Notes: a model not told the origin generated them from the letters alone. A DNA stretch of 64,000 nucleotides from Psammoneis japonica (GCA_008632985.1 QPGO01000028.1:553598-617597); one strand, 5' to 3'. Counted from the first letter of the stretch, positions 12,554 through 64,000 are shown. Numbers and translations are program-made.

Positions 12554-12559
12554 CTCCCC

Positions 12560-31550: not shown

Positions 31551-31859
31551 ATAAGATGGTATCAGCCGGTCACCGAGTTGGTATAGTAAGTAGGTGGAAA
31601 TAAATCGCGACGCTTTACTTTTAGTTTTAACAGCCCAGCATTAGGGCTAGTGGGTTAACCGCATTTTGAGCATGCATAACGTATAACATCGTGCTAGCCT
31701 GTGCGGTCGCGTCTTTTGCGGTTTGAAGAAAAGGAGCAGACTGCAAGTCCTCGCCACCCACACTCGAGGTATGCTCTCCACGAATAATAGAGAGTTCGAT
31801 GGACTCCCTCATTCATGCTTCACTTATTAGACGAGAGGCATTGGCTGGATTCCATTCAT

Positions 31860-32660: not shown

Positions 32661-32749
32661 GTTTCGCGGGTTTTTCGGTGTGGCAGGAGCAGTTCAAAGA
32701 TGTGTCAGAACAACAACTAATTCGGTGATCAGAGATTGGGGCTCAACCA

Positions 32750-35575: not shown

Positions 35576-35850
35576 TTTGATCATGACAGACAATGTAAAC
35601 TTCTGCATCACAATTACGTCAGCGGCTGCAAGATTTGGGAGATTCAAATGACCGCCACATCCCGATCACTGGTCAACCCCCATGCGTCATGCGGACGTCA
35701 CTCACCCACCCCGCCCTGCCATTTTGTTTTCAACTGCATTGACGAATGTGATCATGATTTGAAATTAAAACCTGCCGTCATTGTTGGCATGCCCACTTGC
35801 TCGCATCAAAGGCCCCACCAACATTCATCATCATTCTGAGCTTTGTCACC

Positions 35851-38800: not shown

Positions 38801-39282
38801 TTGCTGTCGATTCAACCATGCCTTTGTTCAACACCGCTGCCACTGGGTTTTCACAAATGTCGAACGTCAACACAAACGATGACGACAATGAAGAAGACCA
38901 AGACCTTGCGTTTGGTTTTCTAGAGGAAGCTTGTCAATCCGGATGTGAAGCATGGTCTCAAAACTTCCATCAAGAAGTGGTTGCAATTGCGGACCAAAGT
39001 GTGCGGAACATTTTGGTGCCCAGGATTAACACCCTCGCAGGGTTGTTTGAATCTCAAGATGTGTCATCTGTGGACATGCCAGATGTTGCACCCTTGGCTA
39101 CGATGACAGACAAGATGATTGCAGACATGCGGGGCAAGATGCACTCTCTGCGTCTTCCTTCGTCGATCCGGGATGAGGATGACACACCTCATTGGGTGTC
39201 GAATTGTTCCGAGAGAGACACCAAGTGCCGACACACACACACATGCCGCAATGGTCTAACTGAATGGCAACACACACAGTGA
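35851..39282 (+). pseudogene. Mutator-like (MULE) transposase with SWIM zinc finger, disrupted
   Basis: Motifs FIGSAW..EERLFRMLPHV, FRWVFQVTLPTLL, MFTDGDSQEI, ARCGWHIV, NNSSHEGTNFGMK and SWIM CTCAEFQRTGMGCIH. Several frameshifts. Confidence 0.85.
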
Positions 39283-39329
39283 CAAATGCAAATGTTTGTT
39301 GCAAGTGCAACACACACTGACAGAACGAG

Positions 39330-42300: not shown

Positions 42301-42330
42301 GGACACTTACGACAGGGGGGGTTCTGCCAT
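39330..42330 (-). pseudogene. Large convergent gene of unknown function, probably cargo of the MULE element
   Basis: ORFs 41012..41896, 40601..40984 and 40196..40567 share one frame and are separated by single TGA stops. The gene continues after a frameshift in 39189..40253. Its mutation state matches the transposase. Confidence 0.6.
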
Positions 42331-42374
42331 GGTGGTTGGTTGACTTTTTTTGTGGCACTGTTGCGTGTGGGAGA

Positions 42375-42428
42375 AAACGAGCGTTGAGTTCAAACCGAGC
42401 GTTGGGTTCGAACCAAGCGTTGAGTTCA
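42375..42428. repeat. Three tandem 18-bp units (aaccgagcgttgagttca consensus), probably subterminal repeats of the MULE
   Basis: Units at 42375-42392, 42393-42410 and 42411-42428. Confidence 0.85.
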
Positions 42429-42751
42429 AAAATTTCATCTAGCATGCGCCATTAATACAACATAAATTTATATTATATTGGAGATTTAATACACACATAC
42501 AGTCAACGGTCCAAGGGACGAATACTTAACGCACATGACGTCCGCATGACGCATGGGGGTTGACCAGTAATCGGGACGTTGACACCTCGAAGAATTTCTG
42601 TGACAGAAACCCGAACAGTGGCATCTACGGCACTGTACGGTATGTAGTCTACGTACAGTATCTATTTTAGGTACCCTTTTGGTAGACATTTCGTCGCTGA
42701 TTGACTGCATCGCTGTTTACTGGGGAGAAGAAACACGAGCTTTTCTTGGAA

Positions 42752-43567
42752 ATGATGAATGTTGCGGAAGATGACAAAGAAGATGAGGGGGGCTTCATGC
42801 ATTTTTCAGTTCATGTTGAGAGAGCTGGAATCACGGAAGTCAACGGCGAGTATGAACAAGCTGGTGAATTCAATGGCGCTAGAAAGTTCATTAAGGAAGG
42901 CGTCTGGGGAAAGCGTCCGGTTGTTTTCTTGCTGTTTCGGTGCTACGTTTGCGACGACTTGAGACGCTGGTACATTTCTGTTGCGCCCAGAGGCCTGCAG
43001 CCAGGGACAAACGCTGACATCGATTTCTACACTGCGCCAGCCGATAACCCGCGAGTAGTAACTCCTCCTGAGGATGGCTGGAAAACTGTTGGAGTAGGAA
43101 GGGATCCGCCACCTCAGTTGATAGTGAAAACCCAGGAAATGCAGTCGGACTGGGATATGTCCTGTACGCAAGACTCGGGCGAAGAAGACGAGGGGGTCTT
43201 AGTGGATGTTAAATATTTGCCCGACCACTCAGCAGTTCGTGTTGAGAGAGCTGGAATCCTAGAAGTCAACGGCACGTATGAACAAGCTGGTGAATTCAAT
43301 GGCGCTAGAAAGTTCATTAAGGAAGGCGTCTGGGGAAAGCGTCCGGTTGTTTTCTCGCTGTTTCGGTGCTACGTTTGCGACGACTTGAGACGCTGGTACA
43401 TTTCTGTTGCGCCCAGAGGCCTGCAGCCAGGGACAAACGCTGACATCGATTTCTACACTGCGCCAGCCGATAACCCGCGAGTAGTAACTCCTCCGGAGGA
43501 TGGCTGGAAAGCTGTTGGAGTAGGAAGGGATCCGCCTCCTTCAGTTGGTAGTATAGCGACCATTTAG
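42752..43567 (+). CDS. Protein with two near-identical domains of about 105 aa (VERAG..VNG.Y...RRWYIS..PGTNADIDFY..PP.DGW)
   Basis: 426-bp period DNA duplication (about 42806-43195 versus 43232-43627). The domain resembles the C-terminal module of diatom BTB/POZ proteins (from recall, not verified). Confidence 0.7.
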   Translation: MMNVAEDDKEDEGGFMHFSVHVERAGITEVNGEYEQAGEFNGARKFIKEGVWGKRPVVFLLFRCYVCDDLRRWYISVAPRGLQPGTNADIDFYTAPADNPRVVTPPEDGWKTVGVGRDPPPQLIVKTQEMQSDWDMSCTQDSGEEDEGVLVDVKYLPDHSAVRVERAGILEVNGTYEQAGEFNGARKFIKEGVWGKRPVVFSLFRCYVCDDLRRWYISVAPRGLQPGTNADIDFYTAPADNPRVVTPPEDGWKAVGVGRDPPPSVGSIATI

Positions 43568-44063
43568 GAAATGCACTCGGACTCGGATATGTCCTGTACG
43601 CAAGACTCAGCCCAAGAAGACGAGGGTAGGCCTCATTGGCAAATTCTTAGGGAAGATGCGCATCATTATGAGTTGATATCCTTATTTACGTCCTTGTGGT
43701 GAGGTAGGCCACCCTCTTGACTTGGGATCATACGACATCAAAGTTGTGTCGGAGCTCCGAGAAAAGTATTTGGGTTTGTTAGCTAGATCGTTTCGCAAAA
43801 TAAGTCAAAGCAGAACAAACTCTCTTTTTGCGTACTAGAGAAGATGATGACGGCTTTTTTCGGAAACGACAATGAAGAGGAAGCCGCGTGGAGTAAGTTG
43901 TATGTCTTGCAATATAGCTTTTTTCTTTACACACCGTCATGACTTCTACATATTCAGCAAGCATGAGTATAAAACTGACACTACAAGAATCACCTCTAAG
44001 CTGATGACTTCTAAAAACCCGAGAAAATGGTCTATTTGGCTATCCTGAGGCATACCGGATTGA

Positions 44064-46332
44064 TCACATTGACATGATCTGGTCAAAACGCTCCACTTCT
44101 TCTGGACTCATTTCCGGTTCCTTGGTGTAACGAATGCGCCGTTCGTAAAAAGTCGAATGAACATGCTCAGCGACTTCTTCCGCCAAGGCCTTTGGGATTG
44201 CCGCCGCATTCCATTGCCTCCCGTGAGACCTTGCCCCAATGGGGTGCGTCCCCCCAGCAAAAGGACACTTGCTGTCGCATTTGAATTCGGCCAAGGTGCC
44301 ATGCAAGCGAAAGTCATTAGTCCAAATGTAGGTTGGCTTCTTGTCCTCTCGCCCTAATGCACAGTAGTGGACAATAGTGGGATACAACCCCATAGTCTCG
44401 ACGATCTCCTTCATGAGCGGCATCTTGCGCAAGAAACCCACGGGGTTTTCAATAACCACAAGTAGATGAGGATTATGGGATCGCGCCCACTTCATAATGG
44501 CAAACATTTGTGCCAACAACCTGTTGTGCTCCCGTGCTTCTGGTGTCTTTTCGAATTCACCTTTTTCTGGATTACGATGCTTGCCCCCCGACAAGTTGGA
44601 ATAGGTGAAACAGGGTGGACTGGCCCAAATAAAGTCGGGTATCATATCAATGTCGCTGTATTTCAACTTCATAATATCCAACCTGTCAGTCGCATACGAC
44701 GTGGGAGAGTTGTCAATGCTCCGGACGCGCCATTTGCGATCCGCAAATTCTTGCGTCACCACACCACAGCCCGAGAAGAGCTCCAGACAACACAATTGTC
44801 GTCCTCGGACGGGATGCATCCGCATGGGGCGACTGGCCCGACACCTCATGAGCTCGTGAAACTCGAAATCTTCCTTTTCGCCGTCATCATACGTGACTTC
44901 CCACATTTTGACCTTGAGGCCATCCACTTCCAACCATTCAGCGTCCTTGGTGACGGTTCCATGATAGGCCGAGCCGTCGAAATTCTTGCGAATCCTCAAG
45001 CCGACACGTGGATTAAAGCGCTCTTCGTCTGTAACGTCGTCCGTGTCTTGTTGTTTCTTGGCTTGATGGATGAGCTGCATGGCCTTGTTGAGTCCATATG
45101 GCGGCTTCATTTGACTCAGAGCCGCAACGACTTCCACCTCGGTGACTCCCATGCGAAAGCACAAATCTCGTTTTGCGGTTGCATAGTCCCAAGTCCGTTG
45201 GGAAGGCGGTGCATGTTTCCGCGGCGGCTTGGAAGTCTTGTCGTCTTTACCTTCAACTTCTTCTCCAGAGGGTTCTTCTTCGTCGTCTTCATCTTCTTCC
45301 CTTACTGCACATTCAAGCAATTCGTCCATATCCAAGTCCTCATGGTCTCCGTCTTGGTAACGCACCCGCCAACTCATGACTACTTTTCCGTTCTCGTTGG
45401 TTGCTTCCGGTCCAGAAATCACTTTTCCCCGATAGTATATCCCATCGTCAAAGAGTTTCCGAATCTTCATACCGACACACGGTTCTTCATTGAAATCTTG
45501 ATGCTTGCGTTTACGAGGATGATGATGAGCCATAGTAGCAGTTTCATACTCGTTTAGATGAGACGGTGGCTGGCGTTCGCGAGTCGTCATCCTCTTGTTG
45601 GCGGCATCCCTCTCGTTCAACTCATCATGATGATCATCATCTTTTTTAGCAGCAGGCTTTTTCTGTTCATCCTCCTCGTCCACGTCCGTGTCATCTTCTA
45701 CTTGCTTCCTGGTATCTTCAGGATTCGTAGCAGTGTCCTCGGGATTCATTCTGGACAGCAGGGCTTTCTTGGGAGGCGACTGGACCAACGCAACGTCGTC
45801 TTCTTCCCAACACTTCCTCCTCCAACTCTTCTTTTTCTTCTTCTTCCAACTCTTTTTCTACAGAGTACTTGTCTTTACCGATTGCACATTCGAGTAACTC
45901 TTGCTTGGTCAAATCCTCTTGGTCGCCGTCTCGGTAGCGTACTCGCCAACTCATGACCATGCTACCGTTCTCGGCGGTTGCTTCTGGCCCAGAAATCACC
46001 TTGCCAAAAAATTTCCCTTCTGGAAATTGTTTGCAAATCGGCATGCCAATGTATGGATTATCTTCTTGAGGATCTTGATGCTTGCGCTGTACAGGAGTCG
46101 TCGTCCCCATGGCCGTAGTCGTAAGATTGGTAGTCACACCTTCAGTGTCAACAACCGGAGCTCGCTCCGTTTTCTTCTTGTTGCCATCCGGAGTCACTGC
46201 AGCAGCAGCAGCAGCAGCTACAACTTCCTTTGCAGACGTTTTCGTTGACGCCGTATCGCCTTTGTGACCCTTGTGCAAAGACACCGCCTTTGCCACCACT
46301 TGCGCAACTCCTAAATCTTCCTCGTCCATCAT
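44064..46332 (-). CDS. Cytosine-5 DNA methyltransferase with three Tudor-like domains and a UBA-like segment; one-base frameshift at 45806-45808
   Basis: Motif I LELFSGCG, motif IV IWASPPC, motif VI VIENP, VHYCALG..KKPTYIWTN, and motif X AIPKALAEEV. Tudor-like G..I.K.F....(Y/F).G.V.....W.V.Y.DGD.ED units occur three times. Removing one G in ttgggaagaagac joins ORFs 45718..46359 and 44064..45788. Confidence 0.85.
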
Positions 46333-46457
46333 GGTTGATTTTTTTGTGAGGGCGGGCAACGCACGATATCGTCGCCATAATCATCAGCGATCTTTTCTGT
46401 ACGGGGCATGTGTGTATAATTCTACATACTGATTTTGCTACGAGACTACATTACCAT

Positions 46458-49400
46458 AAGATCTTGCGCCACATTTTTTTCTGATTCCAACGACCGGCCG
46501 TGGTCCGTCGAAACTGCATTACACGATGTTGTGTCACACAATGATGCATGGCATGGAATTCGCTGTTGTCGCTTTTATCATTCTTGCAGGGCCAGGGCAT
46601 ACCTTATTTCTAAAAGCACTCTTCAAGTCTTCCTGTAGTCTTCTTCTGTTTTGTCAGGTCCATCATTGTTGTTTTTGTTTTTGCATGGGTTGCATTTGCT
46701 CCAATCAGAGTGCCCTGTCAACGGCGGCACAAGAACAAGAGATTGATGCACCTTGCGACACTGCACGAGAGGTTGTGTCGGGCATTGAAAGCATTCCCTT
46801 GATGGTGAGAAATGTGGAGAAGGTTGAATTTCTGGATGTGTTTCCGAATTTGCCATGGCGATGCGGACGCGTTCCAGCTCCAGGTGGGGCCTTGCACTGT
46901 GCCACTGAACTGTGGCACAATTGTTTTTTATGAGTCAGCCGGGGCAGGGCTAGTTGGTCGCGCATGTTTGGGTTTGATGCAGCCGTGCAACTAGCCATGC
47001 CCTGCAGGCAAAGCTGTTGGTGGCACGTGAGCAGATGCAGCACAGTGCCGTGGAAGCAACAAAGCAAAGAGCACGGCGTGGGTCAAAACGTTGTAAAATG
47101 ATGCGACAACAAGCAGTGAGAAGAAACCCAACTTGACCCATGAACACAGCGCACAAACATTGTCCAACAACTTCAATGGTGTCTCGCATTCCCTGCTTGC
47201 AGATCAGTGAACGCCACTCGTGCGTTGCTCGCCATGGTGTTGTTGGGCGTTGTCGTGTTGTTTGCGTGCGAAGAACATTCTGTCCATTCATCTGACAGTG
47301 AATCTGTTTTGGCAACAGTGGATGTTTTGCTGCATCCAATCTGAAAACATTTTGAGAAGCGCTTCGGGGCGACCCTGTTCAGGGCGTTAAACAGAAATTT
47401 TTTTGTGCAGATTCCAGAGTTCTTTCGGGGTGTTCTGTGAGATTTTTGAAATGCCGCGTGCATGTGTCAATTAAAAGCACAACAAAATTTTATCTCAAGC
47501 ACGCAGTGCATGGTCATCAGACTGTGCAGGCGTGTGTGCATGTGTGAGGTGCAAGTGGAACATGTGTGGAATCACCACTGAGTGAGTTGACAGGCGGTGG
47601 ATTTTCACCGGTGCACAATCTGCAGGCTCTGCAGGGAAGACAAATTCATGTCAGTTCCTGAGGCTTTCACACATCATTGAATTTTCCAACGCCTTTAATT
47701 TGCACATGCAAGAACTCAAAAGTCTGACAGAACACCCCGAAAGAACTCTGGAATCTGGATGAAAAAAATTCTGTTTGACGGTCCGAACAGGGTTGTCGCG
47801 AAGCGCTTCTCAAAACATCTTCCGATTGAACACAGCAAAATGTCTGCTGTTGGCAAAACAGAGTCACCATGGGCAAAATAGATCCCCGTCCTTCGCGCAC
47901 AATGACAGTGGCACGACAACACACAACAACACCATGGCGAGCAACGGGAATGCTGTTCACTTGTCTGCACACCAGCTGGCATTTCCACATGAGATCAAAG
48001 CCATTGGAAAATGTTTGTGTGCTGCATTCCTGGGTCAAGTTGGGTTTCTTCTCATTGCTTCTTGTTGTTGTGTCACTTTACAACGTCTTGACCTGCACCA
48101 TGTTTTTTGCTTTGGCTGCAAGTTGGCTGCTTCTGCTCGATCCATCCGCGCCGCACCACCGAACAGCTTTTCCTGCAGGGTGTGGCCAGTTGCTCATCAC
48201 ATCAAACCCAAATGTGCATGAACAACCAGCCCCACCCCGGCTGACTCACAATGTCCAGAAGCATCAGAGACTGACACAAATTTGTCTTTCATGCAGACCA
48301 CGTAGACAGAGCGTGCACCTGCGGAAAATCCACCGCATGTCAACTCACTCAGTGGTGATTCTGCATGTGTTCTGCTTGCACCTCACACACACACACACAC
48401 CTGCACAGTCCAACAACCGCGCACACGTGCATGAGATCATCCGTCGCATGTTTCACATGTGCATTTCTGCGTGTTCTGTTGTAAAAAATTGTTCATTCAT
48501 GACAACAAAAAATGCACTGGGTGCATTCTTTAATGTCTGAAGAACACACCCAGGCACATTGTAAAGAATGCACTTCAAGTGTGGAGGAGGAGATGCATTC
48601 GCAAAATTGCCTCTTTTTCTGTTGGTGATCATTGACACATTCATTGCTTGACAATTTTGCTGCAGAGCTCACACGCAGAATTCTGCAGGCCCAATGTCAC
48701 AAAAAGTCCCAAATGGGACTGGAGCCCATCTGTGTTCCAGGTGTGCCACAGGTGGGACCTCATGCTGCTGGAACTGTGACATCGACAGTTTTTTAATCGC
48801 GTCGCATGTCGCGCACGTGCATTTCTGCGTGACTTTGGTGACATTTTGCATCATTTACGGTGCAATTGTTGGGCGATCCATTCAACAACTTTTTTGACAT
48901 TTTTTCCTTCTGCGCCATTCTTGAATGTCTTGAGAATGGCACAGGGCAGGCGGATTGTCCAAAACTTTGAGTGGGGACAGGGGCATGTGTGCCACAAACT
49001 TGGTCACTCATTTCATGTCGAAGACAAACATGTGCATCAACCAGAGCATGAACCACAGAGCTTGCGCGCAGAATTCCACGGGGCAGGAACACATCTGGCA
49101 CAAGAAAGCATCACAGAACAGAAAAAAAACAAGAAGTGTGTGGCTGGGCAACAACAAGAAGGAACCCTCGTTTGCTCAAATCAAGATGATTCCTTGGGTT
49201 GAAAAGAAGAACACCCATGTTCATTCAGTCTCAACATTGGCTTTTCAAACAAAGAGGGCAAAGGATCAGAAGACATTGAAAATTTGTGTGTGTTTTCTGC
49301 CACAACATCCCAGTCAGAAAGAGAGTCTTGATTTTGTCCATTGGCTTTGCCAGCAAAGACAATGCACTGAGTTTCTGTTCATGCTTGGTGCTGAAATGTG

Positions 49401-49494
49401 CAAGAAACATCTTGGTGATGAAGTGCCAGCAGAGGATCATGCCAATGCTGCAATGAAATGTCAAGAAGAGAAACAAGCAGAAAATCAATGGTGA
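46458..49494 (+). pseudogene. Decayed duplicate of the SRPBCC gene at 60510-61049, including its upstream region, split by an insertion of about 2.25 kb (about 46859-49111)
   Basis: 46458-46858 aligns with about 60291-60681. About 49112-49494 aligns with about 60683-61045. Confidence 0.9.
46928..48430. repeat. Interleaved inverted repeats A-B-A'-B' inside the insertion
   Basis: A (about 46928-47470) is the diverged reverse complement of about 47695-48250. B (about 47500-47665) is the reverse complement of about 48260-48430. Confidence 0.8.
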
Positions 49495-49957
49495 GGAAGC
49501 ATTCCATCAAAATCTGCTGACTTCAGCTGTGCAAGTGCAGCCCATCTGCTCCAAGGTGCACTGGGGTTTTTGACTCAGATGACCTTCAAAAGAGGAAAGC
49601 CAATGACATTCTTGATCTCATGCAAAGCTTCATGGAACAGCCAAGTGTTCTTAACTTGCTGACATGCCCCCATTTCTGATGTGCAGCTTTGAGACATCAA
49701 GCTGTGCAATGCCCAGAGGCTTTGGCTTGCTCTGGATTTGAAAGCCAACTTTCAATTTGGCAGTTCTGGGGCTCTTTCTTCATTGCATCAAAGTCACATT
49801 TTTGGGGACTTGAAGCACATGAGAATGAACTTCAGGTGTGAACCAGAACAAGTGACTTGAGACTCTGGAAATCTGACTTGTTTGCAAGGAGGTGCATTTG
49901 TGCAAGAGCGTCTGGGGTGTTTTCATCAAAAGTGGATTTTTCCAATCAACTCTGGCT

Positions 49958-50216
49958 GGCCTGTTCCAGCTCCAGGTGATCTGCTTTTCATCACACGAGA
50001 GGCCGATTTTCTGTGCAGTTTGGCGCAATTGACTCCTTCAATTTTGATGGTTTCGAAAATCAAAAGGTGAGTGCACACCCAAAAATGCATGCAAAGTGTG
50101 CACTTGCCCTTTGATTTGGCAAAAAACGGATTGGAAAAAGTCAATTGTGCTGAATGCACAAATTGCCAAATGATGGGAATCGAGCCCGCGCGGAGCACCT
50201 GGAGCTGGAACAGGCC
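49958..50216. mobile_element. MITE, copy 1 (259 bp)
   Basis: 21-bp TIR ggcctgttccagctccaggtg. 4-bp TSD ggct at 49954-49957 and 50217-50220. Confidence 0.9.
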
Positions 50217-50543
50217 GGCTGGTGGGCACTCAAGAGAGCTTGTCATTGTCACAGAGTGATTTGCTGCTGGCTCTTGTGCACCTTCCTGCATCTTCTCTAC
50301 ATGTGTGCTGTCATTTCCAATTCTGCCACATTGTCTGCTGTCAGCATCACCCCATTTTCAGGAGCCAATTTTGCCTTGGGTTCAAGACAAGCTGCAGTGC
50401 ATTTGGCAGCCTTTGCAACACCTTGTTTTCTGTTGACTGCTGCAAATCCAACTAGAGTGTGCATGTTTTTGCCACCCTTGTCTGTTTCAACCACTGCTTG
50501 CTCTGTGAGCAGCAGGCAGGCCATCTGTTCTGATTGTTCCCCT

Positions 50544-50806
50544 GGCCTGTTCCAGCTCCAGGTGCTCCGTGCGGGCTTGAATCCCATCATTTGGCAATTT
50601 GTGCATTTGGCGCAATTGACTTTTTCCAAATCCTGTTTTGCCAAATCAAAGGGCAAGTGCACACTTTACATGTGTTTTCGGGTGCACACTCACCTTTTGA
50701 TTTTCGAAACGATCAAAATTGAAGGAGTCAATTGTGCTGAACTGCGCAGAAAAGGCCAACCGGCCTCTCGCGATGAAAAGCGGATCACCTGGAGCTGGAA
50801 CAGCCC
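50544..50806. mobile_element. MITE, copy 2 (263 bp), same family in the opposite orientation
   Basis: Same TIR with one mismatch. 4-bp TSD ccct at 50540-50543 and 50807-50810. Confidence 0.9.
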
Positions 50807-52169
50807 CCCTCGTGCCACACCATCACTTTGTTTTTCTCAGAGGTGCTCCTGTGTTTTTGTAACTTGGTGTGGGGGGTTCCTCTTTTTTTGACAGGAGCTG
50901 GGTGTTCAACCTCAACAACACAAGGGACTCACTTTGAAATGGCGACCAACTGACCAACCCACATGCCAATTGATGGATGTGAAAAAGCAAACCTGCATCC
51001 ATTTGAAGTGCTTGTGGATGTGACAAACAGTTCTGTGGTGAACCCGATTTGACTTCAGATGATGGTTGGAACACGGATGTAAAACAACTTTGCCAGTGTG
51101 GTTGCTCACTTGGGGTCTGATCTTTTTGCTCCTTTTGAACAGACACGTTTCTTTTGCCTTTCAAAAAGACACAAGAAGATCGTTGCTGTGTGGGGTCATG
51201 GATGACATGTTGTCATCAGAGCATGAGCTTCAGCAGCTCTGCAAGCCGTCACATGCAAGCATGTCCATGTGGCCAACAACTGGGGGGACCGCGGTGCCGC
51301 TGCAGGATCCAGCTGCGTCAACTCAGCTGCAAACAGTCTTTGCAGCAGATGCAGTCTTGTCAGAGCATCTTCAAGACCCATCACTCAACAGTGCCAGTTT
51401 GGGTGTTGCTGTTCAGGCCACTCAAGCTCAAATCTCTGGTGACACAGCAGTCCATCTGGCAGACAATCATGAGAGTGCAATTGCCGTGGACTGCCTTTTT
51501 CACAAACTTCTTGAGGATGAGAAAAAGCACTCAATGAACCTGAGTGTGACTTGCCTGTTGAAGTCTCTGTCCCAGCGGCCATGCATTTGACAAAAGAGAT
51601 TGATGGCGGCTGGAGTGGCTGGAGTTGGTTCTTGATTTGAAGACTGCAGAAAAACCATCTTGTCATCACAAAGTGACACGTTAACCATCTGTTTGCTTGA
51701 GGAGAGAGCAGATTCTGTCATCAAAAGAAGCTGCTCTCTGGTGCACTTTCCTGCCACCAAGCGGCACAACCAGTCATGGAGCATCATGCAAAACACCATG
51801 ACAAGAAGCACAAACAAGAGAGCACTGGCAAAAAGGCCAAATGCCCCATCATGCAGTGATGGCAGGCACAGCTGTTGGGTCTTGCTCTTGCAGCACTGCT
51901 TTTTGTAGTCGGTGCTCATCTGTCGCAAAAGGGCAACAAAGCACACGTCAGGCACACCTTGTGCTCAGGTCTCCCAAACAGTGGACATTGAAACAACACA
52001 GCCATGATCAACACAAATGGGATTGCAACAGTGCAGACTTTGGATGAGGAGTCACTCGTGAAATGAGCATTCTCTCATGCTGGGGCTCAGTCAAGGCTGC
52101 TGACCTTCCATGTGAATTTGCCATGCATTCAAGGCACAAGAACCATTTTTAGAGACACTCTCTCTGGGA

Positions 52170-52524
52170 TTGGCAAGGGGGGAATTGAAATGCTGTTTCA
52201 GGAGAGGGAGGGACAAGCGTCCAAAAGTTCACAGGAGAGAGCGTCACCATTGGGAACAATGGTCAAATTGTGAAACTCACGCCTGCCACACTCTCCAAAA
52301 CTTGCCAGACGTGTTTCATCGTCTCACTGGCCCAAGGGAACTTGAAATCTCAGATTGCCCTAACTAGAGGGCTGCCCCAATCGATTCGATCTTGCAAGCT
52401 GAAAAAGTGTGTGTTCCTCCACCCCCGAAACAGATGCCATCCACCACATCTCGATGTCGTTGACGACTTGAGTCTTGGCCTGCTGTTCACAATAATTTCA
52501 ACTACATCAAAATGTTGTGAATAG
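52170..52524 (+). pseudogene. Possible leucine-rich-repeat gene fragment
   Basis: LQNLPDVFHRLTGPRELEISDCPN followed, after a frameshift, by GLPQSIRSCKLK. Confidence 0.35.
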
Positions 52525-52912
52525 AACATGGCGTCTAATGAACCTGACGCTCCTACGAAAAAAAAGAACACATGTTTTTACAGTGATCCAGTTGATCGAT
52601 ATACCTTGACATTACTAGAGGACAAAACAAGCTAACAAGCCTCTGAGAAGAAGATAGGGTGACATGGCTGACTGATGCCTAATACGTCGCAAGCTGCCTT
52701 GTTGGGGAAGATACCCAAAATTGAACTGGCAACGCAGACGCAATCTCTCAATTGTCTTGGATAGGAAGGACAGTTTTGTCGTTGCAGTACACCGATTAAA
52801 CAGTTTTAGGCCCTGACAAGTCTTCTGCCGCCATTCTTTCTATGCCAGCAAGTCGTACTTGTGCTCACGGACACCAGGGAAGACTAAGACACACTGCTTG
52901 CTATATCCAGGT

Positions 52913-55298
52913 TCAATTGTCAGTATTTGCGATCCACGTTCTTATGCGAGGTTGGTAGAGAAGCAACTGCCCACCACTCCCCAGTTTGTGCTCATTGAGC
53001 ATTCCCTGGTTGTAATTCTTGGCTGCGACAGTTACAGCTATGCTTTTTCTGTTTAATGGAACCGATCGACTGGCCTCAATCGCTTGGTGTCCTTTGCCAA
53101 AGATGGTGTCTCGGATCCAAAAATTTCCAGTGGAAGTCTTTTTCAGGAGACCCGAAATGTCCACAGCGCTGGAAAATTCGTGGCGAAAGGATCCCTTTGT
53201 GTTTACTCCCGCCGGAATCCCTACCTTTGCCATATTCCGAGTATTCTTTTTGCCTCCCGTCATTGCTACGAAAAAATAATCAAGTTCTCGACCATCATTC
53301 TCGTGCTCAAGAGCTGAAGAAATGAACATTCGCTCCCCATAATCATTTCTGGAAGACTCTTGAATGACTAGATGCATCGTATTTGCCTTGGGAGTGTCGG
53401 TAAGACAAGTTCGATGTTGGAAGGCTCGTGAAATTTGTGCTTTGTCCGCCTTGATCTATCCACTGCGGATCGTCCCCAACCATGTTGTACTTGGCGCTGA
53501 CTCCATTGGCGTACATACCTTTCCCCCCAAGTCTGATTGGATTTGCAACGGGGACTTCTGCCTGATACACATAGTATTCACCTTGTAGTATCGACGGAAA
53601 ATGTGACCCTTGCGATAAGCCAGATAAAGCTGACGACAGCCCCGTCACATAATAATGGCCGAAATACCCGTCGTCCGATCCGAGGACGAATCCGCACTTG
53701 CCTTGACGGGGATCTGCCGCATTGTGCGTCAAGGGGTAGCCTCTTTCATTTCCATCCTTCCGTTCCAGTAAGACCATTCGCGTCCGAGTTGATAAGGAAT
53801 GTCCTGCCATTCCCATATGCTTCCGTCATGTGCAATGTCGCGAACAACTCCGTTCCATTGCCAGTCAATTGCAACCCATTTCCCTAGCACTTGGCTCCAT
53901 TAACCAGCGACGGCCCATGCGAATGCCAATAGTCTCTGCCTTGGGCCATGGTAGTGGCAAAGCCGTACACCTTTCCGTACCGTAACCCATTTCTGGCCAA
54001 AAAGTCATTGGTATTACGTGAACCGTCTTCCATGAATCCTTTTTTGCCAATGTACACTCGAGCCGGGACAATCGATTTTGGGTTTTTCCATGATTGACCA
54101 TCCCGACGCGTGCCGTGCTTGTTATGTCGTCGCCTAAGGATTCTGGTCAGGGATGAATGGAAGTCTCCATTGTCGCCGGATAGAGCCAAGGCAACATAGT
54201 CATTATGCATGCTTTGAATCTCCACGATTTTCTTGTAGCCCCCAAATCCAAGCACTCCCAGAGCGTAAGCCGTTCTTGTTTTTACATCAATTGCATACGA
54301 ACCCAACCCCACCATTCTCTTAACGTTATCGGGATAGTAGCCACGTGATTCACTGGTGAACAAAATGTCGTCAACAAATCCTCTAGTGTCGGACCACTGA
54401 TACTTTGGCGCCAAATGGATGGCGCCTGGCCTGCTCATGATCCAATCGGCACCGTCATTGGGGTACTCATTCAGGATGTAGTTGCCGGAGGGATCCGTGT
54501 TAGAAAAGTGAGCACCGATTCCGGTGGTCCCAGTGATACGATTGCGAGGCCTCACCAATTCGCCCTTGACGTTGTAAAAGGTTTGGATGAATTCCCCGCT
54601 CCACAGGAACGCGATGGAATAAGAAAGGTCGTTCGATCGCATCCCGACCAGAAGTGCCATGAGTCTACGGTCGTAATCCACAAACTGTAAATGCCCACCG
54701 CTGAATGAGACGGCTCCATTATTTACTCGATAGGGATACGGATTTTTGTTGTATGGTCCCTTGGCACTTTGTACAAGCATTCGGACCGTCGCAAAATTGG
54801 GTAGGTACGCAGCCACCCCCACAGGCATGCCGACAAGGTATTTCCCAGTCTTTTTATTAACTTCTCCACTGTAGCAATGGATGACAAAGATCCGTGGGGG
54901 AAATACGTATCGCCGCTTTGGCCGTCCTCTACTTTTACGCCTCGTGTCTGTTTCGCATCGTTAGCTTCCGGAATAAGAGCTGTAATTTCTCCAATGCCAT
55001 ACCTGTATGTTGACGCGGAGTTTATGCGCCTGGAAGTAGAAAGTTCAAGACTCGAAGTCTCGTTTCGAATAGTGGATGGCGAGCTTGCAGTCTTCAAACT
55101 ATTGATGTCGAGTCTTCCTCTGGTCGTTGACAAGCTCTCTTTTGTGATGCTGCCTGCCATTGTCCTCGCCCCTTCTCCTTCATTTCGAGGTATCCTAGCT
55201 TCTTTGTTTGTCCCACGGAGATGAATTGGGGTTTCCTCGGCTCTCACTAGTACTTCCATAAGGAACAACGTCAGAACAACAAGAAGTTCTCGTCTCAT
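52913..55298 (-). CDS. Secreted PhoX/alkaline-phosphatase-like beta-propeller protein with four single-base frameshifts (pseudogene or assembly errors)
   Basis: Signal peptide. Motifs FPHGSLSSIATV(GE), TVRMLVQS, VPARVYIGKKG, FLARNGLRYGKVYGFA, GYFGHYYV, IQE..NDYGERMFISS and GGQLLLYQP. Shifts near 54866, 53892, 53757 and 53383, all in short homopolymers. Confidence 0.6.
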
Positions 55299-55450
55299 GT
55301 TGAATTTTGTATCGTAGACCTTGTGATGATACCTTAGCCCTTAGAGTAGTTGTATATTGAGGAAAATGAAAATGAAAAAATGAGAAAAGAGCGCAAAACC
55401 GTGCTCGCTCCGTTTTTGATTTTATGTTTTGCTCGCTGATAGATGTCGAC

Positions 55451-56688
55451 TGTCGACATTCTCTCTTTTGAATAAGTAATGTGTGCTACATGTATGAAGG
55501 TTGTTCATAAAAAGGGCTTTAATGAGCCTGTTTATAATTGTCTCTTCATGAATGTACAGCATAGAGAATCTTTTGAATCATTGGTCAAACCTCGCATTCA
55601 GCATCTGTCAAGAGCACTCTGGTGTTACAACAGACACACATTGTAACATCTGCAATGTGTGTTTAAGAAATCCAATGTGAAAGACCGTCAGAGCCAACTG
55701 AATGTGCTTGCAATGCCTGGCACAATTAACTGGCTTGTGTGCCCGCACATTGCGCATGTGAAGACCTTGTCTGGCACACCCAAACAAGGGTTGAGACACC
55801 CACCTTCTCTGCAGCCCACATTCTTGATGATGGCATGCTGAACAGTTTCTGAGAGCATGCTTGAAATTCCAAGAGATGATGCATTTCAGCAGGAGAGAGA
55901 AGAACTGCCATGTCTTCATTGATGGGCACTTTTCAAATGTGGTGGGTGTGGCTGACTTCATTCTCAGCAGTGCTTGCATCAGAGGTGGCAATGCAGTGGT
56001 TTCCACTTTCCTTTGTAAAATTTTGAGTGTGCATTGTTAAAATTGTCAACAAGCAGAACTTAAAAAATGCCAGCAAAAGTGCTTGACAAAATGAAGGTGT
56101 TTTTTGCATTTCATCTGATGTCTCATTAACTTTTCTTGCACAAGCTTCAATCAAATGCATGCAATGTTTAATTTGGTTGGGAACAAAATCCATTTTTTGT
56201 CATGCATGGTTTGGTTTCCTTTTGATCATAATTAATTTGAACTTGGTTTTAACTTTGTCCTCCTCACTCACGTGTGTGTGTCTTTGCATGTGTGCAGTCT
56301 GCAGCACTTCACGCAAGCACGTGACCCACCTTCATTTTTCTTCACTTTTGCACAGCCTGTTGGTCTACGGCATTTTCAGCATGTGTTTTACATGCGCAAT
56401 TTTCCACACATTTCACAACAGTGCACGCTCTCCCCAAATTTGAAAAACGAGAGCGTGTGCTGTTGTGATTCACGTGGATCCTGCGTGTGGTCACAAATCT
56501 GCAAATCGACAACTGGCCATGGCGGTGAAAGACTTTGTGTCGACATTCTCTCTTTTGAACAAGCATTGTGTGCTGCATGTGTGGAGGTTGTTCACAAAAA
56601 GGGCTTTGTCAATGAGCTGGCTTGCAGTTGCCTCATCATGAACACACAGCAACACATGGAGAATTTTTTGAATCATTGGTCAAACCTC
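55451..56688. repeat. Dispersed direct repeat of about 145 bp: 55451-55593 (TpA intact) and 56538-56688 (TpA lost)
   Basis: Both copies run tgtcgacattctctcttttgaa...ttgaatcattggtcaaacctc. Confidence 0.92.
55603..55979 (-). pseudogene. RNA polymerase III largest subunit (RPC1) N-terminal fragment, copy 1
   Basis: LLSPAEMHHLLEFQACSQKLFSMP and NCARHCKHIQLALTVFHIGFLKHTLQMLQCV (clamp region, GHFGHI.L..PVFHIG). Duplicate of 58557-58953. Confidence 0.75.
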
Positions 56689-58049
56689 CGCGGGTGCCGC
56701 ACATGCGCGCAGCTCCCCCCCAAAGCAAGTGAGCCTTGGCAAGCGGTCGAGTCATGGTCCCACGAGGAGCAACCCCACCATTCCAGAAACAGTTGTGCTT
56801 GTCATTGCAGTTCAGTGAGTCACACAGCATCTCAGAAAATCCCACAGCCAGAAGCCAAGGAGGAAGCCGTGACAGTGCTTTTTCTCTCTCTCTGGAGGCT
56901 GGAACAGCCACAAGAGATGATGGCAAAGAGACTGAAACCAAGAGTGCAGCACGTGAGGGTTGCAACCTGACAGAGCATTCCTGTCAACAATCTAAGATGT
57001 GTGCATGGTGGCAACAACCTGCATTTTAGATTGTCAAAGAGTGAGCAGATCTCAAACGACCCATCTGGAGGAAGATCAGCATGTCTGTCATGTGTGCATC
57101 TCATGTGCTGGCACTGCAGCACATGGTGACTGACAGCCCAGTTTCATGTTTCATGGACAGATCACAGATCAGATTGCAGCTTTTGCTCACAACATTGTTT
57201 GAATGGAAGGTGGTTTCTCAAATTGTTTTTGGGGAGATTGGCTCGGGAGGACAGGTAGGGCACACACGCAGATTTTGTGCTGTTCATTGTGAATTCTGTG
57301 TTTGTCAATGGAAGAGACTCTCAGGAAAAACTGGCATTGAACAATGATCAAATCATTTGACAATCAGATCGTGGCAATGACAAAGCAAAAAACGACATGT
57401 GGCAGATCTTCAACAGCTCACATCTCACATTGGCCCCAACCATGTTGGGTGGAACATGTGTGATGTGCCAGCATGACTCTGTGACGCAAGAGCTTCTCAA
57501 GACAACGTGAGATGTCACTTTTTTGTGTGGAAAAAACAAAAAAAGAAAAATCTGAGTCTGACCCCATCACAAAAAAAGACAATGTCTCATGCATCATGTT
57601 GAGCCATGAGTCAAGCAAAGCCAAGAAGAAGATGAAAGTTGCTTGCAAGAGGGTTTTGCTTGTGCTTGTGTTTGCTCTTTGCAAGGTGGCAGGTGTGTGC
57701 TGGCCCCCTTTGCTGCAATTCTTAAAGTGCACAAATTGTTGCAGACCAACAAGCAATTTCCACTGCTGCTTTCCCATCTGGTCTCTGCTTCTTCCTCAGA
57801 GCTTGTGGCAGCACCAGAGTTCACACCAAACAATGTCACCTCTCCAATTGCAAGTGCTGCTGCAGACATCCAAAAGAATCATGGAGTTCATTTTGTCATG
57901 TGTTGCACATTCTCACAGTTTCTGCAGTCTGTTTTTGCTGTTCTCGGAAGGATTTTGGATCTGGCAAAATGACAGTTCTGCCAGAAAAATCAACATGCTT
58001 TCCAGACAAGTTCTTGCCACAAAACCATCCTCATTGTCTGCCTTTGAGT

Positions 58050-58953
58050 CTCTGGCACAGTTCCCACATGGGATTTGTCCAAAGTCATGCTCCTGGACAA
58101 TGGCTCTGGTGTGCGGCAATCATTTGGTGAGAACAAGCTCAAGAGCTGTGCTGACATCAACAATCTCTTGGGAGTTTGACAGCCAGATCATCTTTGTTCT
58201 TGCTGCCTCCACGAATGTCCACAGCTGCAGAGGGATGGCTGAGAACTGTGGGGAAAGAATGCTTTGCAGAATCAAGTTCTCTGGATGACCAATGAGAGGG
58301 TCAATCCAAAGGATCTTGCAATCATCATTGGGCATCATGGAGAACAGTTCCAGAACCCTCATTGGAAACAAGTCTTCTGCAGGTGGATTGCTCCCAGCAT
58401 GGACAGATGGCATGACATCTTCATTGTGCTTCATGGCAGATTCAAGGCTTTCCCCAAGTTGCTCCATCTTGCCATCCAAGTGCTTTCCTTTTGCTCAGTG
58501 CCCAGCCTTTTTTTATTGATTTCTCAGCATTCTTCAAAGCTGCTGATCACATTTGGCATCCGTCAAGAGCACTCCTCTGGCAAAAGTCTTGCAGACAAAT
58601 TGCAACATCTGCAATGTGTGTTCAAGAAATCCAATGTGAAAGACCATTGGAGCCAACTGAATGTGTTTGCAATGCCTGGCACAATTGACTGGCTTGTGTT
58701 TGCACATTTGTGTGAGGAGATCTTGTCTGACACACCCAAACAAGGATTGAGACACCCAACTGCAGCTCGCATTCTTGATGGCATGCCAAACAGTTTCTGA
58801 GAGCATGCTTGAAATTCCAAGAGATGATGCATTTCAGCATGAGAGAGAAGAACCAATTTGAGGTAGGAGATCCTCTTTGAAGAGCCATGTCTTCATTGAT
58901 GAGGCATTTTTCAGATGTGGTGAGTGTGACTTCATTCTCAGCAGTGCTTCCAT
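58050..58953 (-). pseudogene. RNA polymerase III largest subunit (RPC1) N-terminal fragment, copy 2 (longer)
   Basis: GCLNPCLGVSDK, HIQLAPMVFHIGF, EDLFPMRVLELF..PNDDCKILWIDPLIGHPENLIL and DDLAVKL.EIVDV. Confidence 0.8.
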
Positions 58954-59811
58954 GATGCAACCTGTTCACATCATGAGACATGAAGCCACATTCTCTCAAG
59001 CATCTGGAATTCTTGCTGCACAAACACAGCTTGTGATTCTGTCAGTTCAAAAATGAGAAGCCCTGTTGAGCATCAAACCACCTTGATGCCATGGCCTTGT
59101 GATGCTGCTCTCCACCATGAGCCTCTGCTTGAAATGGTGGAAACAAGTGTTGTGATGCCTCTGAAAAGGAATCTGAACATGAGCCAAGGGATGCTGATGG
59201 GATGTTGATGACTGCATGAAAACGGACATTGAAAACTTTGGTGTTTGTTGCTCCCTTCAGTTTGGTTTTCACAAAAAGAACCCGGGTCAGCAACAAGGTG
59301 TGGTGTTTCTGCCATTGCCATGCTTCCAACACATGAGGACTGTCATGGCATTGTTCATGGAGTCATTGCTCTCATTGCCAAGCCACATCACACACAACAA
59401 GCCCTCACTCAACCTGGCTGCAATTGGTGTCTCCTCCTCTTTTGGCAGCTGCTTCCAAGAGGGCCTTTGTGTTCTTATGTGATCCTCATGCAAAGGAGTT
59501 ACTTTGCACATTTGTGACAAACTCGTCAATCGACGCCACCTCTGGAGCTGTGGAAGCATGTGAGAATCACACCCATCATCTCAGCCCTTGCCACATGCTC
59601 CCAGCTTGAAAAAGACTGTTGTGCACCATGGTGGAACAAGCAGATTTTTGCAAACCTGGCCCATGCAAAAATCACAAGGTGACAGATGCAGTTGCAGGAG
59701 AAGCACCTGATGCTCTTTTGCCTGCAGATGTGTGTGAGAGTTGTTTGTGGTGCCATGACATGGTGGCAAAGCAGCTTGTGGATGCCAGTGCCTGTCGCCA
59801 ATGCTGTCACA

Positions 59812-60278
59812 ACAATTGAAGAACTTTGATGACACTCAATTGCTCACAAGACAAATGGGGTCAAAGGGAGATCATTTTGTGATGCAGTTGCAGCTGTTGA
59901 GCTGGTCTTGTTGGCTCGTGCCTGCCTGGTGTGCTGAGCGAGAAGAACATTGGAAGAGCGGGCCAGTGTTTGAATGACTTTGATGGAATCAATTGCTCAC
60001 AAAACAAATGGGGGGGGGGGGGGGGGGGNGCAAAGGGAGTTTGTTTTGAAGCAAGTGTGGCCATTGAAGTGGTCTTGTTGGCTGGCGCACTTGCAAATTG
60101 GTGTCGCTGAGAGCAAGTGGAGCGTTGGAAGAATGGGCCAGTGTTTGAACAGCTTCGGTGACATTCAATCACTTGCAAGACAAATGGGGTAACAAAAAGT
60201 TCATTTTGAAGCGAGTGCAGCCATTGAACTGGTTTTGTTGGCTGACGCACTTGCAAATTGGCATCACCAAGAGTGAGC
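59812..60278. repeat. Three diverged tandem units of about 155-175 bp; the middle unit has a poly-G run and an N
   Basis: Recurring ttgaa..cttt/cgg/atg..caat..ct..caa.acaaatgggg...ttttg...ggtcttgttggct. Confidence 0.8.
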
Positions 60279-60509
60279 TTCATTGCCATGAGACCTTGCG
60301 CCACATTTTTCTGATTCCATAGACCGGCCGTCGTCCGTCGAACAGCATTAGCCTGCATGCTGGAATTTGGATATTGCTTGCCTCGCTTTTAGGCCCCAGT
60401 ATTCTTCTGCGGTTGCAAGGGCCGGAGCATAGGGATACTTAGTTCTAAAAGCATTCAAGTCTTCCTGTCGTCTTCTTCTGTTGTCGGGGCTGTTGTTTTG
60501 TGTTTTTGC

Positions 60510-61049
60510 ATGGGTTGTATTTGTTCCAATCAGAGTGCCCTGTCAACGGCGGTGCAACAAGAGATTGATGCGCCTTGCGACATTGTATGGGAGGTTGTGT
60601 CGGATATTGAAAACGTTCCCTTGACAGTGAGAAACGTGGACAAGGTTGAATTTATGGACAATGTTTCGGAATTTGCCGTGGGTACAAAATGGAAAGAAAC
60701 AAGACGTGTCGGCAAGGAACCCTATTTTACTCAAATCAAGACGATTGCTCGAATTGAAAAAGAAGAATACCCGCGTTCATTCAGTCTCAACATTAGTTTT
60801 CCAAACAAAGAGGGCAAAGGAACGGAAGATATTGAAAACACGTGTACTTTTACCGTAACACCCGTCAGCGAGACCACGAGCGTCTTGATTTTGTCCATTG
60901 GCTTTGCTAGTAAAGACAATACACTGAGTTGCTGCTCGTGTTTGGTGCTGAAATATGCAGAGAAATACCTTGGTGACGAGGTAGAGGATTATGCCAATGC
61001 TGCAATGAAACGTCAGAAGAGAAACAAGCAGCAAATCAATAGAATATGA
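60510..61049 (+). CDS. SRPBCC / polyketide-cyclase (START-like) protein with an N-terminal MGC acylation motif
   Basis: QEIDAPCDIVWEVVSDIENVP...VEF...FAVGTKWKETR...FTVTPVSETTSVL. ORF is intact and TpA content is normal. Confidence 0.8.
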   Translation: MGCICSNQSALSTAVQQEIDAPCDIVWEVVSDIENVPLTVRNVDKVEFMDNVSEFAVGTKWKETRRVGKEPYFTQIKTIARIEKEEYPRSFSLNISFPNKEGKGTEDIENTCTFTVTPVSETTSVLILSIGFASKDNTLSCCSCLVLKYAEKYLGDEVEDYANAAMKRQKRNKQQINRI

Positions 61050-62920: not shown

Positions 62921-64000
62921 ATGGTATGTATCAAATCCATACGTATTGGTGCCTAGTTCGTGGCGAGAACTTAAGGAACGAAACTGGCAAAGGTTTGTAC
63001 TTTCTTTTCGCGTCGCACCTCCGCGATGAATCAAAGCTGATTGATGTGTGATCCTGAAGAGTGTACCGTGATGGTTGACGCTGTGACGTTCATCATGCAG
63101 TAAAAAGGCAGAGTAATGCTCAACTTCTGTTTCTTTCCTCGTACAGTCGAACTTTTTCGCGGCGTTGGATGACTCGGGAGATGAAGGGGAGAAAAGGATT
63201 ACCAAGCCAGCCGCCAAGAAAAAGGTTGAGGTAGTTGAACCTTCCAAGCCCGATCGTAGGTAAGAATCTTAAACACGAATCAAAATACACTGCAAGACTT
63301 GACTTGACTTATGTGCTGTGTCTTCAACTCTTATTTGAAATTAGAAAACAACCAAACCATGGCGATCGCAACACAAAGGGCGGTCGCGGTGGTCGTGCCC
63401 CACCCGTGAAGGCAAGCGTGCCTACGATCGTCGTTCTGGAACGGGACGTGGTAAGGAAATCAAAAAGGGTGGCGGTGGTGCACGAAACTGGGGAAACGAC
63501 AAGGCTGATGCTCGCAAGATGGAAGGTGCCATTGATGAAGAAGCAAAGAACAACAACAACAAAAGCTCAGAAGAAGCAAACGAAGAAGAAGAAAAGGAAC
63601 CAGAAGTTGTAGTAGAAGACAAGACATTTCGTATGAAGAGTTCATGGCAAACAAGGAGAAACCGAAATCGGACGCCTTTGCTAGTATCCAAGTCCGTGAG
63701 GTCGAGAATGAGTTTGCAAATTTGAAGACAGCCTCCAAAGGTGACCAAGAGGATTTCCTAGTCATGGGCGGCGGCAAACAGAAACGCACGCGAGAAAAGA
63801 AGGAGGGCAAAAAGACGGTTGAATCTGGATTTAAGGTGGCCGCCTCAACACCTCAGTCTCAAGACAGAAGAGGAGGTCGACGAGACGGCGGTGATCGGCG
63901 TGACCGCCGAGGTGGTGGCGGAAACCGGCGCGATAACCGAGGGCGTGACAGTGGACGCGGTGGAGGCCGTGGTGGTGGACAAAAGAAGGCTTCTGTCGAC
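62921..64000 (+). CDS. Stm1/SERBP1/HABP4-family RGG RNA-binding protein; runs off the window; contains apparent frameshifts
   Basis: ATG, then intron 62924-63146, then SNFFAALDDSGDE. Second intron at about 63260-63344. Motif GKRAYDRRSGTGRGKEIKKGGGGARNWG and an RGG-rich tail. Confidence 0.8.

Follow-up and report, generated by a model that had tools for sequence, protein, structure and literature searches.

A decayed duplicate of a host gene points to domain-restricted conversion of TA to TG/CA in the diatom Psammoneis japonica

We analysed a 64 kb stretch of Psammoneis japonica DNA (the window; all coordinates count from its first letter) that carries an intact START/Bet v 1 (SRPBCC)-like gene and a dead, repeat-split duplicate of it. 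Aligning the two copies revealed an A:T>G:C transition bias that is concentrated at TpA on both strands, so that TA in the intact copy reads TG or CA in the dead one. We are nearly certain that a domain-restricted process of this kind is real and that it runs from TA to TG/CA. As the best explanation overall we suggest, with moderate confidence, deamination of DNA adenines targeted to silent chromatin. The two copies are made up of the following parts.

60510-61049, plus strand: intact, intronless START/Bet v 1 (SRPBCC)-like gene, 179 aa as assembled, with 22 TA.
60278-60509, plus strand: 5' flank of the intact copy, homologous to 46446-46684; its first approximately 40 bp lie in a TA-poor block.
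46446-46636, plus strand: zone A of the dead copy, the upstream flank, mostly unconverted.
46637-46858, plus strand: zone B of the dead copy, the end of the flank and the 5' coding half, host DNA outside the insertion.
46859-49116: insertion of 2.26 kb splitting the dead copy, composed of nested high-copy inverted-repeat elements.
49117-49492, plus strand: zone C of the dead copy, the frameshifted 3' coding half; its 14 aligned TA became 7 CA, 6 TG and 1 TC.

The homology joins 46446-46858 and 49117-49492 to 60278-61043 and ends in the dead copy at the probable stop codon. A transition-tolerant search within the window found neither an extension of this homology nor further copies of eight flanking segments (best scores 38.5-49, against 27-42 for shuffled sequence). 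The insertion has inverted-repeat arms at approximately 46928-47478/47691-48251 and 47492-47666/48259-48437. Its summed contig depth is 2,261-22,493, compared with approximately 57 in unique DNA, and a contig joint skips 46894-48771. The left copy continues unbroken into normal single-copy DNA upstream and the right copy into normal DNA downstream; the status of the right copy as the source, assumed in the initial annotation of this stretch, is therefore not established. The arrangement looks like a direct duplication of approximately 770 bp around an insert of approximately 11 kb, with repeats reaching the left copy later. Short inverted-repeat elements at 49956-50224, 50542-50814 and 46864-46889 form a family with a common 26-nt terminal motif. 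Two of its copies are inverted relative to each other, and one end lies at the start of the insertion in the dead gene.

All 12 intact>decayed changes quoted in the initial annotation are present at matching aligned positions. Its statement that no TA is left in the decayed 3' half is also correct, as 49112-49494 contains 0 TA in 383 nt. Base shuffles of this segment gave a mean of 31.5 TA and a minimum of 15, with zero reached in 0 of 20,000, and the rate in TA-normal parts of the window predicts 15 (P=3e-7 for none). In the coding region, 18 of the 22 TA of the intact copy align without an adjacent gap, and none of these is kept in the dead copy, where 10 read CA, 6 TG and 2 TC. Four were left out: 60683 lies at the insertion junction, 60845 and 60982 adjoin gaps, and 61045 falls beyond the homology. 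The coding alignment holds 16 TA>TG/CA changes and 0 reversals from TG/CA to TA (p=3e-5). Transitions are found at 16 of 36 A/T bases in TA and at 13 of 249 other A/T bases (odds ratio 14.5, p=3e-9). The first value is near its ceiling of one half, because one hit removes the TA site. Transitions in AA context are not clearly raised (8/106, 7.5%, versus 5/143, 3.5%; p=0.25).

CG changes were mentioned in the initial annotation as also occurring. They are present, but this understates them: CG-context transitions are in clear excess (15/49 versus 11/169, p=3e-5), and in the 3' half CG is lost as fully as TA, with 0 of 15 kept and 10 changed to TG/CA. Both strands are affected, with 12 TG and 17 CA outcomes across this duplicate pair and the second one described below.

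The direction of change was polarised at the protein level with 29 homologous proteins, namely three and the next 26 of 150 listed. With the three homologues alone, the amino-acid-changing TA codons favoured the intact residue at 11 sites and the decayed residue at none; one site was uninformative, and four further TA sites are silent. For the larger set codon 178, probably the stop codon, was dropped, and the formerly uninformative site became informative. With this set, the intact residue is the commoner of the two at all 11 amino-acid-changing TA sites, for example at Tyr161 (21 versus 0), Tyr153 (15 versus 1) and Val116 (21 versus 0). Two columns are thin (codon 138, 1 versus 0 of 4 homologues; codon 87, 5 versus 0 of 11). 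Tyr87, Tyr149, Tyr153 and Tyr161 are among the polarised sites, and their codons must contain TA. The initial annotation had named two outcomes as contrary to its claim, a TG/CA ancestor and a TA mutation level no higher than that of other sites. Neither was seen, because the homologous proteins support the TA-containing codon at all 11 sites and TA bases change far more often than other A/T bases. For CG, 7 of 8 amino-acid-changing sites polarise forward with the 29 homologues; at codon 36 the apparent CG>CA change probably ran the opposite way (0 versus 7 of 27 homologues).

In an alignment of the copia reverse transcriptase (RT) with 120 homologues, Tyr occurs in at least 70% of the homologues at 13 columns. 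The copia RT in the window has Cys or His at 10 of these, whereas 108 of the 120 homologues have none. One homologue from another record, P0045, has Cys or His at 9 of these 13 columns, and may come from another organism with a TA conversion process. For copies of the inserted repeat we used the best-supported subset of variant sites (40 of 856 rows). Of 17 variant sites among those listed there for other repeat copies, 7 restore TA, 7 restore CG, 2 belong to the same classes and 1 is unrelated.

Two-state segmentation on TA density, which draws the borders from TA itself, divides the window into five TA-poor domains (35.4 kb in total) and six TA-normal stretches (28.6 kb in total). Observed/expected (o/e) ratios in the TA-poor domains are 0.02-0.13 for TA, 0.22-0.78 for CG and 1.50-1.87 for TG+CA, compared with 0.51-0.71 for TA and 0.91-1.13 for CG in the TA-normal stretches. 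By this segmentation TA loss and CG loss occupy the same five domains, and the copia and gypsy RT domains and the high-copy repeats sit inside them. Two of the domains touch the gene pair.

46637-52492: TA-poor domain with the dead copy (o/e of TA 0.07, CG 0.43, TG+CA 1.72).
55728-60319: TA-poor domain ending 190 bp 5' of the ATG of the intact gene (o/e of TA 0.06, CG 0.22, TG+CA 1.81).

Along the dead copy the decay is graded. Zone A, within approximately 300 bp of the start codon of the neighbour gene (46332), keeps 5 of 7 TA and 6 of 8 CG. Zone B keeps 0 of 4 TA and 4 of 11 CG, and zone C 0 of 14 and 0 of 15. TA conversion thus extends further than CG decay. The contrast in CG between zones A and C is free of the circularity in the borders (6/8 versus 0/15 kept, p=3e-4). 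Zone B is host DNA outside the insertion, and conversion therefore spreads at least 220 bp past the nearest repeat. On the other side, normal TA density resumes 190 bp before the ATG of the intact gene; conversion halts a few hundred bases upstream of intact genes. The source copy had been described as untouched. It does keep its coding TA, but its 5' edge lies in the TA-poor block and carries two reversed sites, 60284 and 60289, within 40 bp, at which the otherwise intact copy has TG and the dead copy TA. Two further sequence pairs in the window bear on the role of location.

55434-55730, plus strand: normal member of a second normal-versus-converted pair, copied at 56523-56689 and 58541-58690; 0 of 14 aligned TA are kept and 12 became TG/CA.
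42807-43626, plus strand: negative control, an adjacent 388-bp tandem duplicate in TA-normal DNA; 21 mismatches, with 13 TA kept in both copies.

Together with zones A to C, the converted second pair and the spared tandem duplicate bear out the proposal that conversion depends on location and includes ordinary host sequence. Selection on the protein alone does not explain the TA of the intact copy, since 16 of the 22 have a silent exit to TG or CA, yet remain. We infer that gene activity would protect DNA from conversion and that silent chromatin would be its target.

The rate and level of the process can be estimated from the long terminal repeats (LTRs) of a copia element.

12278-19335, minus strand: copia retrotransposon with LTRs at 12278-12554 and 19059-19335, which differ at 17 of 277 sites.

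The two LTRs of one element are identical at insertion. Of the differences, 16 of 17 fall within the TA/CG/TG/CA classes, including four sites that are doubly changed to TG/CA. These doubles require an independent mutation in each LTR and therefore a DNA-level process after integration. A fit gives a TA loss of 0.70 per LTR (95% interval 0.26-0.88) and a CG loss of 0.18; two small indels could also account for four of the CG-class differences, which form a single run. The loss is approximately 250-fold over background for TA and 40-fold for CG. The floor for TA is near 12-fold at joint pessimistic bounds, because the background rests on one unrelated difference. In the copia block as a whole, TA o/e is 0.13 and CG o/e 0.78. 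TA loss is thus faster than the CG loss that leads to the same products. The four doubles fall within 45 bp (12367-12413 / 19148-19194), and at each of them one LTR reads TG and the other CA. Their patch-like placement gives a hint of strand coordination that is not significant and is absent from the other pairs.

Contigs built from k-mers of two sequencing runs, X1 and X2, were compared with the window. In TA-poor DNA the X1 contigs show 7 differences over 2,310 bases of the window and 4 over 1,219, and X1 contains 70% of sampled words of 46400-56300. X2 is probably RNA, because a contig joint removes a canonical 85-nt GT..AG intron (63260-63344). Both the intact gene (634 nt, 0 other letters) and the neighbour gene are represented among its contigs. 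In one X2 contig, which carries the inserted repeat, seven positions that read TG or CA in the window are TA. X2 has no depth in bins 48670-50003 over the dead 3' half, which was not used as evidence.

Several other explanations have to be weighed. RNA-level editing by an ADAR-like enzyme in UA context, fixed through reverse transcription, would agree with the preference of ADAR for U before the edited A (discussion of Mettrop et al., bioRxiv 10.64898/2026.01.13.699255). We consider it very unlikely: both strands are affected, repeats other than retroelements are converted, the duplicate includes DNA upstream of the transcribed contig, and the divergence of the LTRs after integration argues against it, their double differences largely refuting it. 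Hardly credible is an artefact of assembly or base calling, or selection on composition. The window does have small indel errors (one-base differences from X1 and X2 contigs, and an N within a run of G), and the sample behind the assembly may be X1. However, the X1 contigs reproduce the TA-poor stretches almost exactly, the outcomes are a site-specific mixture of TG and CA, and P0045 has the same Tyr>Cys/His pattern in another record; selection would find little to act on in a frameshifted pseudogene. A trigger by homology, as in repeat-induced point mutation (RIP) of fungi but with any chemistry, would have converted the dead copy by leakage from the inserted inverted repeats. The initial annotation had set the process apart from RIP, which mutates both copies. 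The partner copy is indeed spared, but this alone does not exclude such a trigger, because short coding duplicates in Neurospora are rarely mutated by RIP and the 400 bp next to duplicates have an elevated mutation level (PMC7296669); the dead copy itself borders a high-copy inverted repeat with long arms. Zone B, approximately 220 bp wide, would fit inside that flank. Against this, the 388-bp tandem pair is 95% identical and keeps its TA, and 56674-60008 is fully converted at near single-copy depth (64-87 versus 57). Similarly, the hypermutated giant-virus region of the alga Bigelowiella natans is single-copy according to the preprint of Mettrop et al. We therefore regard a homology trigger as quite unlikely.

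The remaining two alternatives concern the chemistry, and we hold each to be unlikely. In one, an enzyme modifies the thymine of TpA in silent DNA so that this base pairs wrongly with G, which would produce T>C in 5'-RTA; oxidation to 5-hydroxymethyl- or 5-formyluracil by a TET/JBP-type enzyme would be an example. This predicts an identical spectrum, and modified thymines mark repeats in other protists (base J, and 5-hydroxymethyluracil in dinoflagellates). Oxidised thymines are expected to yield transversions too, whereas 16 of the 18 lost TA became TG or CA. A literature search, judged by title or start of abstract, found no report of thymine modification in diatoms, which also counts against it. 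In the other, T:G mismatches from deamination of 5-methylcytosine would be repaired by patch resynthesis with a polymerase-eta-like enzyme that miscopies T in TA, making TA loss a by-product of CG methylation. The signature of polymerase eta is WA>WG. The coincidence of TA and CG loss in five domains favours this, as does the slight, non-significant rise in AA context in the coding alignment. However, TA loss outpaces CG loss in both the LTRs and the copia block, AA+TT is not depleted in the domains (1.12-1.28 versus 1.14-1.28), and the LTRs have no AA-context difference. In Bigelowiella, moreover, 210 of 211 changes are A:T>G:C, all at TpA, as given in the preprint (bioRxiv 10.64898/2026.01.13.699255).

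The reading that we prefer is adenine deamination in silent chromatin. The dead copy would be a pseudogene of a host START/Bet v 1-like gene, now inside a silenced, transposon-rich domain of a diatom chromosome. Targeting would follow the chromatin state (CG-methylated, untranscribed DNA) and not the pairing of duplicates. A candidate DNA adenine deaminase, TadA/ADAT-like or of a related zinc-deaminase type, would convert A to inosine, which is read as G. It would require a 5' T, prefer a 3' pyrimidine, and work at a few sites at a time across many generations. We give adenine deamination a somewhat better than even chance of being the chemistry of the TA change. CG loss would be the ordinary deamination of 5-methylcytosine placed by DNMT5, and the CG decay fits the maintenance of CG methylation on diatom transposons by DNMT5a (PMC9998398). 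As the outcome, mobile DNA would be permanently inactivated and spare host genes lost as bystanders. The sequence context is in line with such an enzyme. Among the TA that survive, TTAA, CTAA/TTAG, GTAA/TTAC and CTAG are over-represented. An additive fit gives weights, by the base 3' of the mutated A, of 2.31 for T, 1.28 for C, 0.85 for G and 0.39 for A, and in the direct pairs a 3' pyrimidine follows the mutated A at 11 of 14 informative sites (p=0.057). This preference resembles TadA-type recognition, TadA recognising UACG (PMC10586758), and the footprint of TadA-derived editors, which cause genome-wide A>G/T>C changes at TA motifs (PMC13225742).

It should be noted that a number of points weigh against this interpretation. 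On the direction of change, the four silent TA sites are unpolarised with a protein-level outgroup, and a search for a DNA outgroup gave only three distant loci of 27-40% identity, too remote to be of use for silent sites or synteny. Because the domain borders are drawn from TA density, the contrast in TA among zones A to C is partly circular, and the reciprocal control consists of two unpolarised sites only. Among the sequencing runs, X1 may be the sample from which the assembly was made and its library type is unrecorded, X2 is labelled 'DNA?', and among the X1 and X2 pieces listed no contig lies over the dead 3' half. Concerning the chemistry, A>G and T>C within TA amount to one and the same change when written as sequence, and sequence therefore cannot separate adenine from thymine chemistry. 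The 3' preference is borderline in the direct pairs, where 6 of 21 informative sites contradict the ranking; the survival-based weights compare non-homologous DNA; and TAT ranks above TAC, the context expected for TadA. Strand-coordinated runs, which a processive single-strand deaminase might leave, were not found, neighbouring TA events being concordant in 10 of 24 cases against 12.1 under the null; tests of strand coordination were negative for TA, CG and the TG/CA doubles. Finally, TA conversion could be a by-product of silent chromatin instead of a defence.

A process of this kind is already described in one preprint, which reports hypermutation restricted to TpA in the integrated viral DNA of Bigelowiella natans (Mettrop et al., bioRxiv 10.64898/2026.01.13.699255). 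The two cases share TpA>TpG/CpA changes on both strands, regional confinement and TpA-poor, TpG/CpA-rich clusters enriched in transposon domains; the rate is very high in Bigelowiella and probably so here. An adenine deaminase, with an ADAT2-like candidate, is proposed there but unproven. Bigelowiella is a chlorarachniophyte, whereas the present case is a diatom (stramenopile). TA o/e is 0.02-0.13 over 35 of 64 kb here, compared with a Rho of 0.45 in the giant-virus region. CG decay is heavy here (0 of 15 kept in zone C, domain o/e 0.22-0.78), and the preprint gives almost no C>T in its region, a comparison that is imperfect since a long-term record is set against a short-term experiment. The 3' pyrimidine preference is not reported in the abstract, Results or Discussion of the preprint. 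A host-gene copy is polarised site by site here, and the TpA-poor gene lists of Bigelowiella also include host-type domains. The Bigelowiella study has direct evidence from de novo mutation accumulation, with activity in only some lines, whereas the process is deduced from sequence in our case. New here would be the near saturation, the pairing with CG decay, and copies of host genes as targets. We found no earlier report of TA>TG/CA conversion in a diatom in the literature searched, with subscription journals mostly outside coverage, and no look-alike stretches among the other genomes scanned.

Fungal RIP is likewise a permanent, dinucleotide-biased transition mutagenesis of repeats that spreads into flanks, and acts in the sexual cycle via RID/DIM-2 (PMC7296669). 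It differs in changing C to T and thereby creating TA, whereas TA is destroyed here. It is also triggered by duplication, whereas the partner copy and the 388-bp tandem pair are spared here, although leakage from the inserted repeats may have reached the dead copy. Decay by deamination of 5-methylcytosine in CpG explains CG>TG/CA in the same domains, in agreement with DNMT5 methylation in diatoms (PMC9998398), but cannot yield TA>TG/CA, the faster process. TadA/ADAT enzymes and TadA-derived editors share the A>G change with a 5' T/U preference. Natural TadA edits tRNA and its DNA activity was engineered, as these sources describe (PMC10586758, PMC13225742), whereas the enzyme proposed here is a candidate deduced from the mutations.

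The gene pair thus fixes the direction of change with an outgroup and, with ordinary host sequence serving as a substrate, shows that DNA need not be foreign to be converted. The pair further maps an edge at which TA conversion runs ahead of CG decay and ends near the promoter of the neighbour gene. Taken with the preprint on Bigelowiella, it suggests that two distant algal lineages have an adenine-directed genome defence. More tentatively, and with a little less than even confidence, we speculate that diatoms, and perhaps SAR (stramenopile, alveolate and rhizarian) eukaryotes, use a dedicated chromatin-guided DNA adenine deaminase as a defence that would read the silent mark and erase T-A-Y motifs unless shielded by an active promoter, destroying spare host genes as well. 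Such an enzyme would act as a natural A-to-G editor of DNA across the genome, chemically the mirror image of fungal RIP. The process may bring to light a natural form of the DNA adenine deaminase activity that had to be engineered for base editors. If true, gene duplication would be limited as a source of new genes, and the dating and annotation of transposons would be misled, with conserved Tyr read as Cys or His. Diatoms are genetically tractable, so the question of the enzyme is testable.

The SRPBCC label of the intact gene is plausible and weakly supported. Its match to Pfam profile PF10604 has 25.6 bits (cut-off 27.4, E=1.6e-5), and matches to PDB profiles are found only at E>=0.13. The predicted structure (pLDDT 52) has six strands and a helix at 142-178; in the helix-grip fold of this superfamily, a curved sheet wraps a long helix at the C terminus. 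The fold matches listed for this low-confidence model are PR-10/Bet v 1/PYL/START-type proteins, with a best E of 5e-5 but a TM of approximately 0.3. Over this gene the window is 1 nt shorter than the contigs of both X1 and X2, and near 61014 it lacks a base present in the dead copy, making a one-base assembly deletion there (61010-61049) probable. The true stop codon is probably TAG at 61040-61042, because the frame shifted by the missing base ends there. This end lies 17 residues from Tyr161, the same spacing as in the homologues P0003 and P0245. If the base is missing, the last change quoted in the initial annotation would be the stop codon itself.

44064-46332, minus strand: neighbour gene encoding Tudor-like domains and a phage-type DNA methyltransferase domain (phrog_757, E=8.5e-13), with zone A as its upstream region; an X2 contig covers 44001-46320.

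In the window this gene falls in two frames, of which an assembly indel is a possible cause. A gene for a chromatin-reading methyltransferase directly adjoins the converted domain. Named homologues of a host hydrolase gene at 9596-11284 are diatom proteins, for example from Cylindrotheca, Nitzschia, Seminavis and Thalassiosira, and those of the copia RT are from Cylindrotheca. The top named hits to the host gene carry names beginning 'Atthe' (64%) and 'Trice' (59%) and pennate genera rank below them, so these homologues support a diatom origin but not a pennate one in particular. Between two converted domains, 52493-55727 is a 3.2-kb TA-normal island with minus-strand open reading frames (ORFs) that match nothing clearly in Pfam or PHROG; its upstream region serves as the normal member of the second duplicate pair. 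Three tandem units of approximately 150 bp, TA-poor, lie immediately 5' of the intact gene at 59816-60261. At 51079-51936, 55648-58766 and 59473-60033, joints and diverged pieces are common to X1 contigs of single-copy depth and X2 contigs, which suggests that these TA-poor segments are decayed copies of other single-copy, probably expressed genes elsewhere. The TA-poor domain at 31829-42439 contains the remnant of a gypsy-type RNase H/RT (33492-34946) together with long ORFs that match no Pfam entry, and is bounded by 44-bp inverted repeats at 35657-35700 and 42536-42579.

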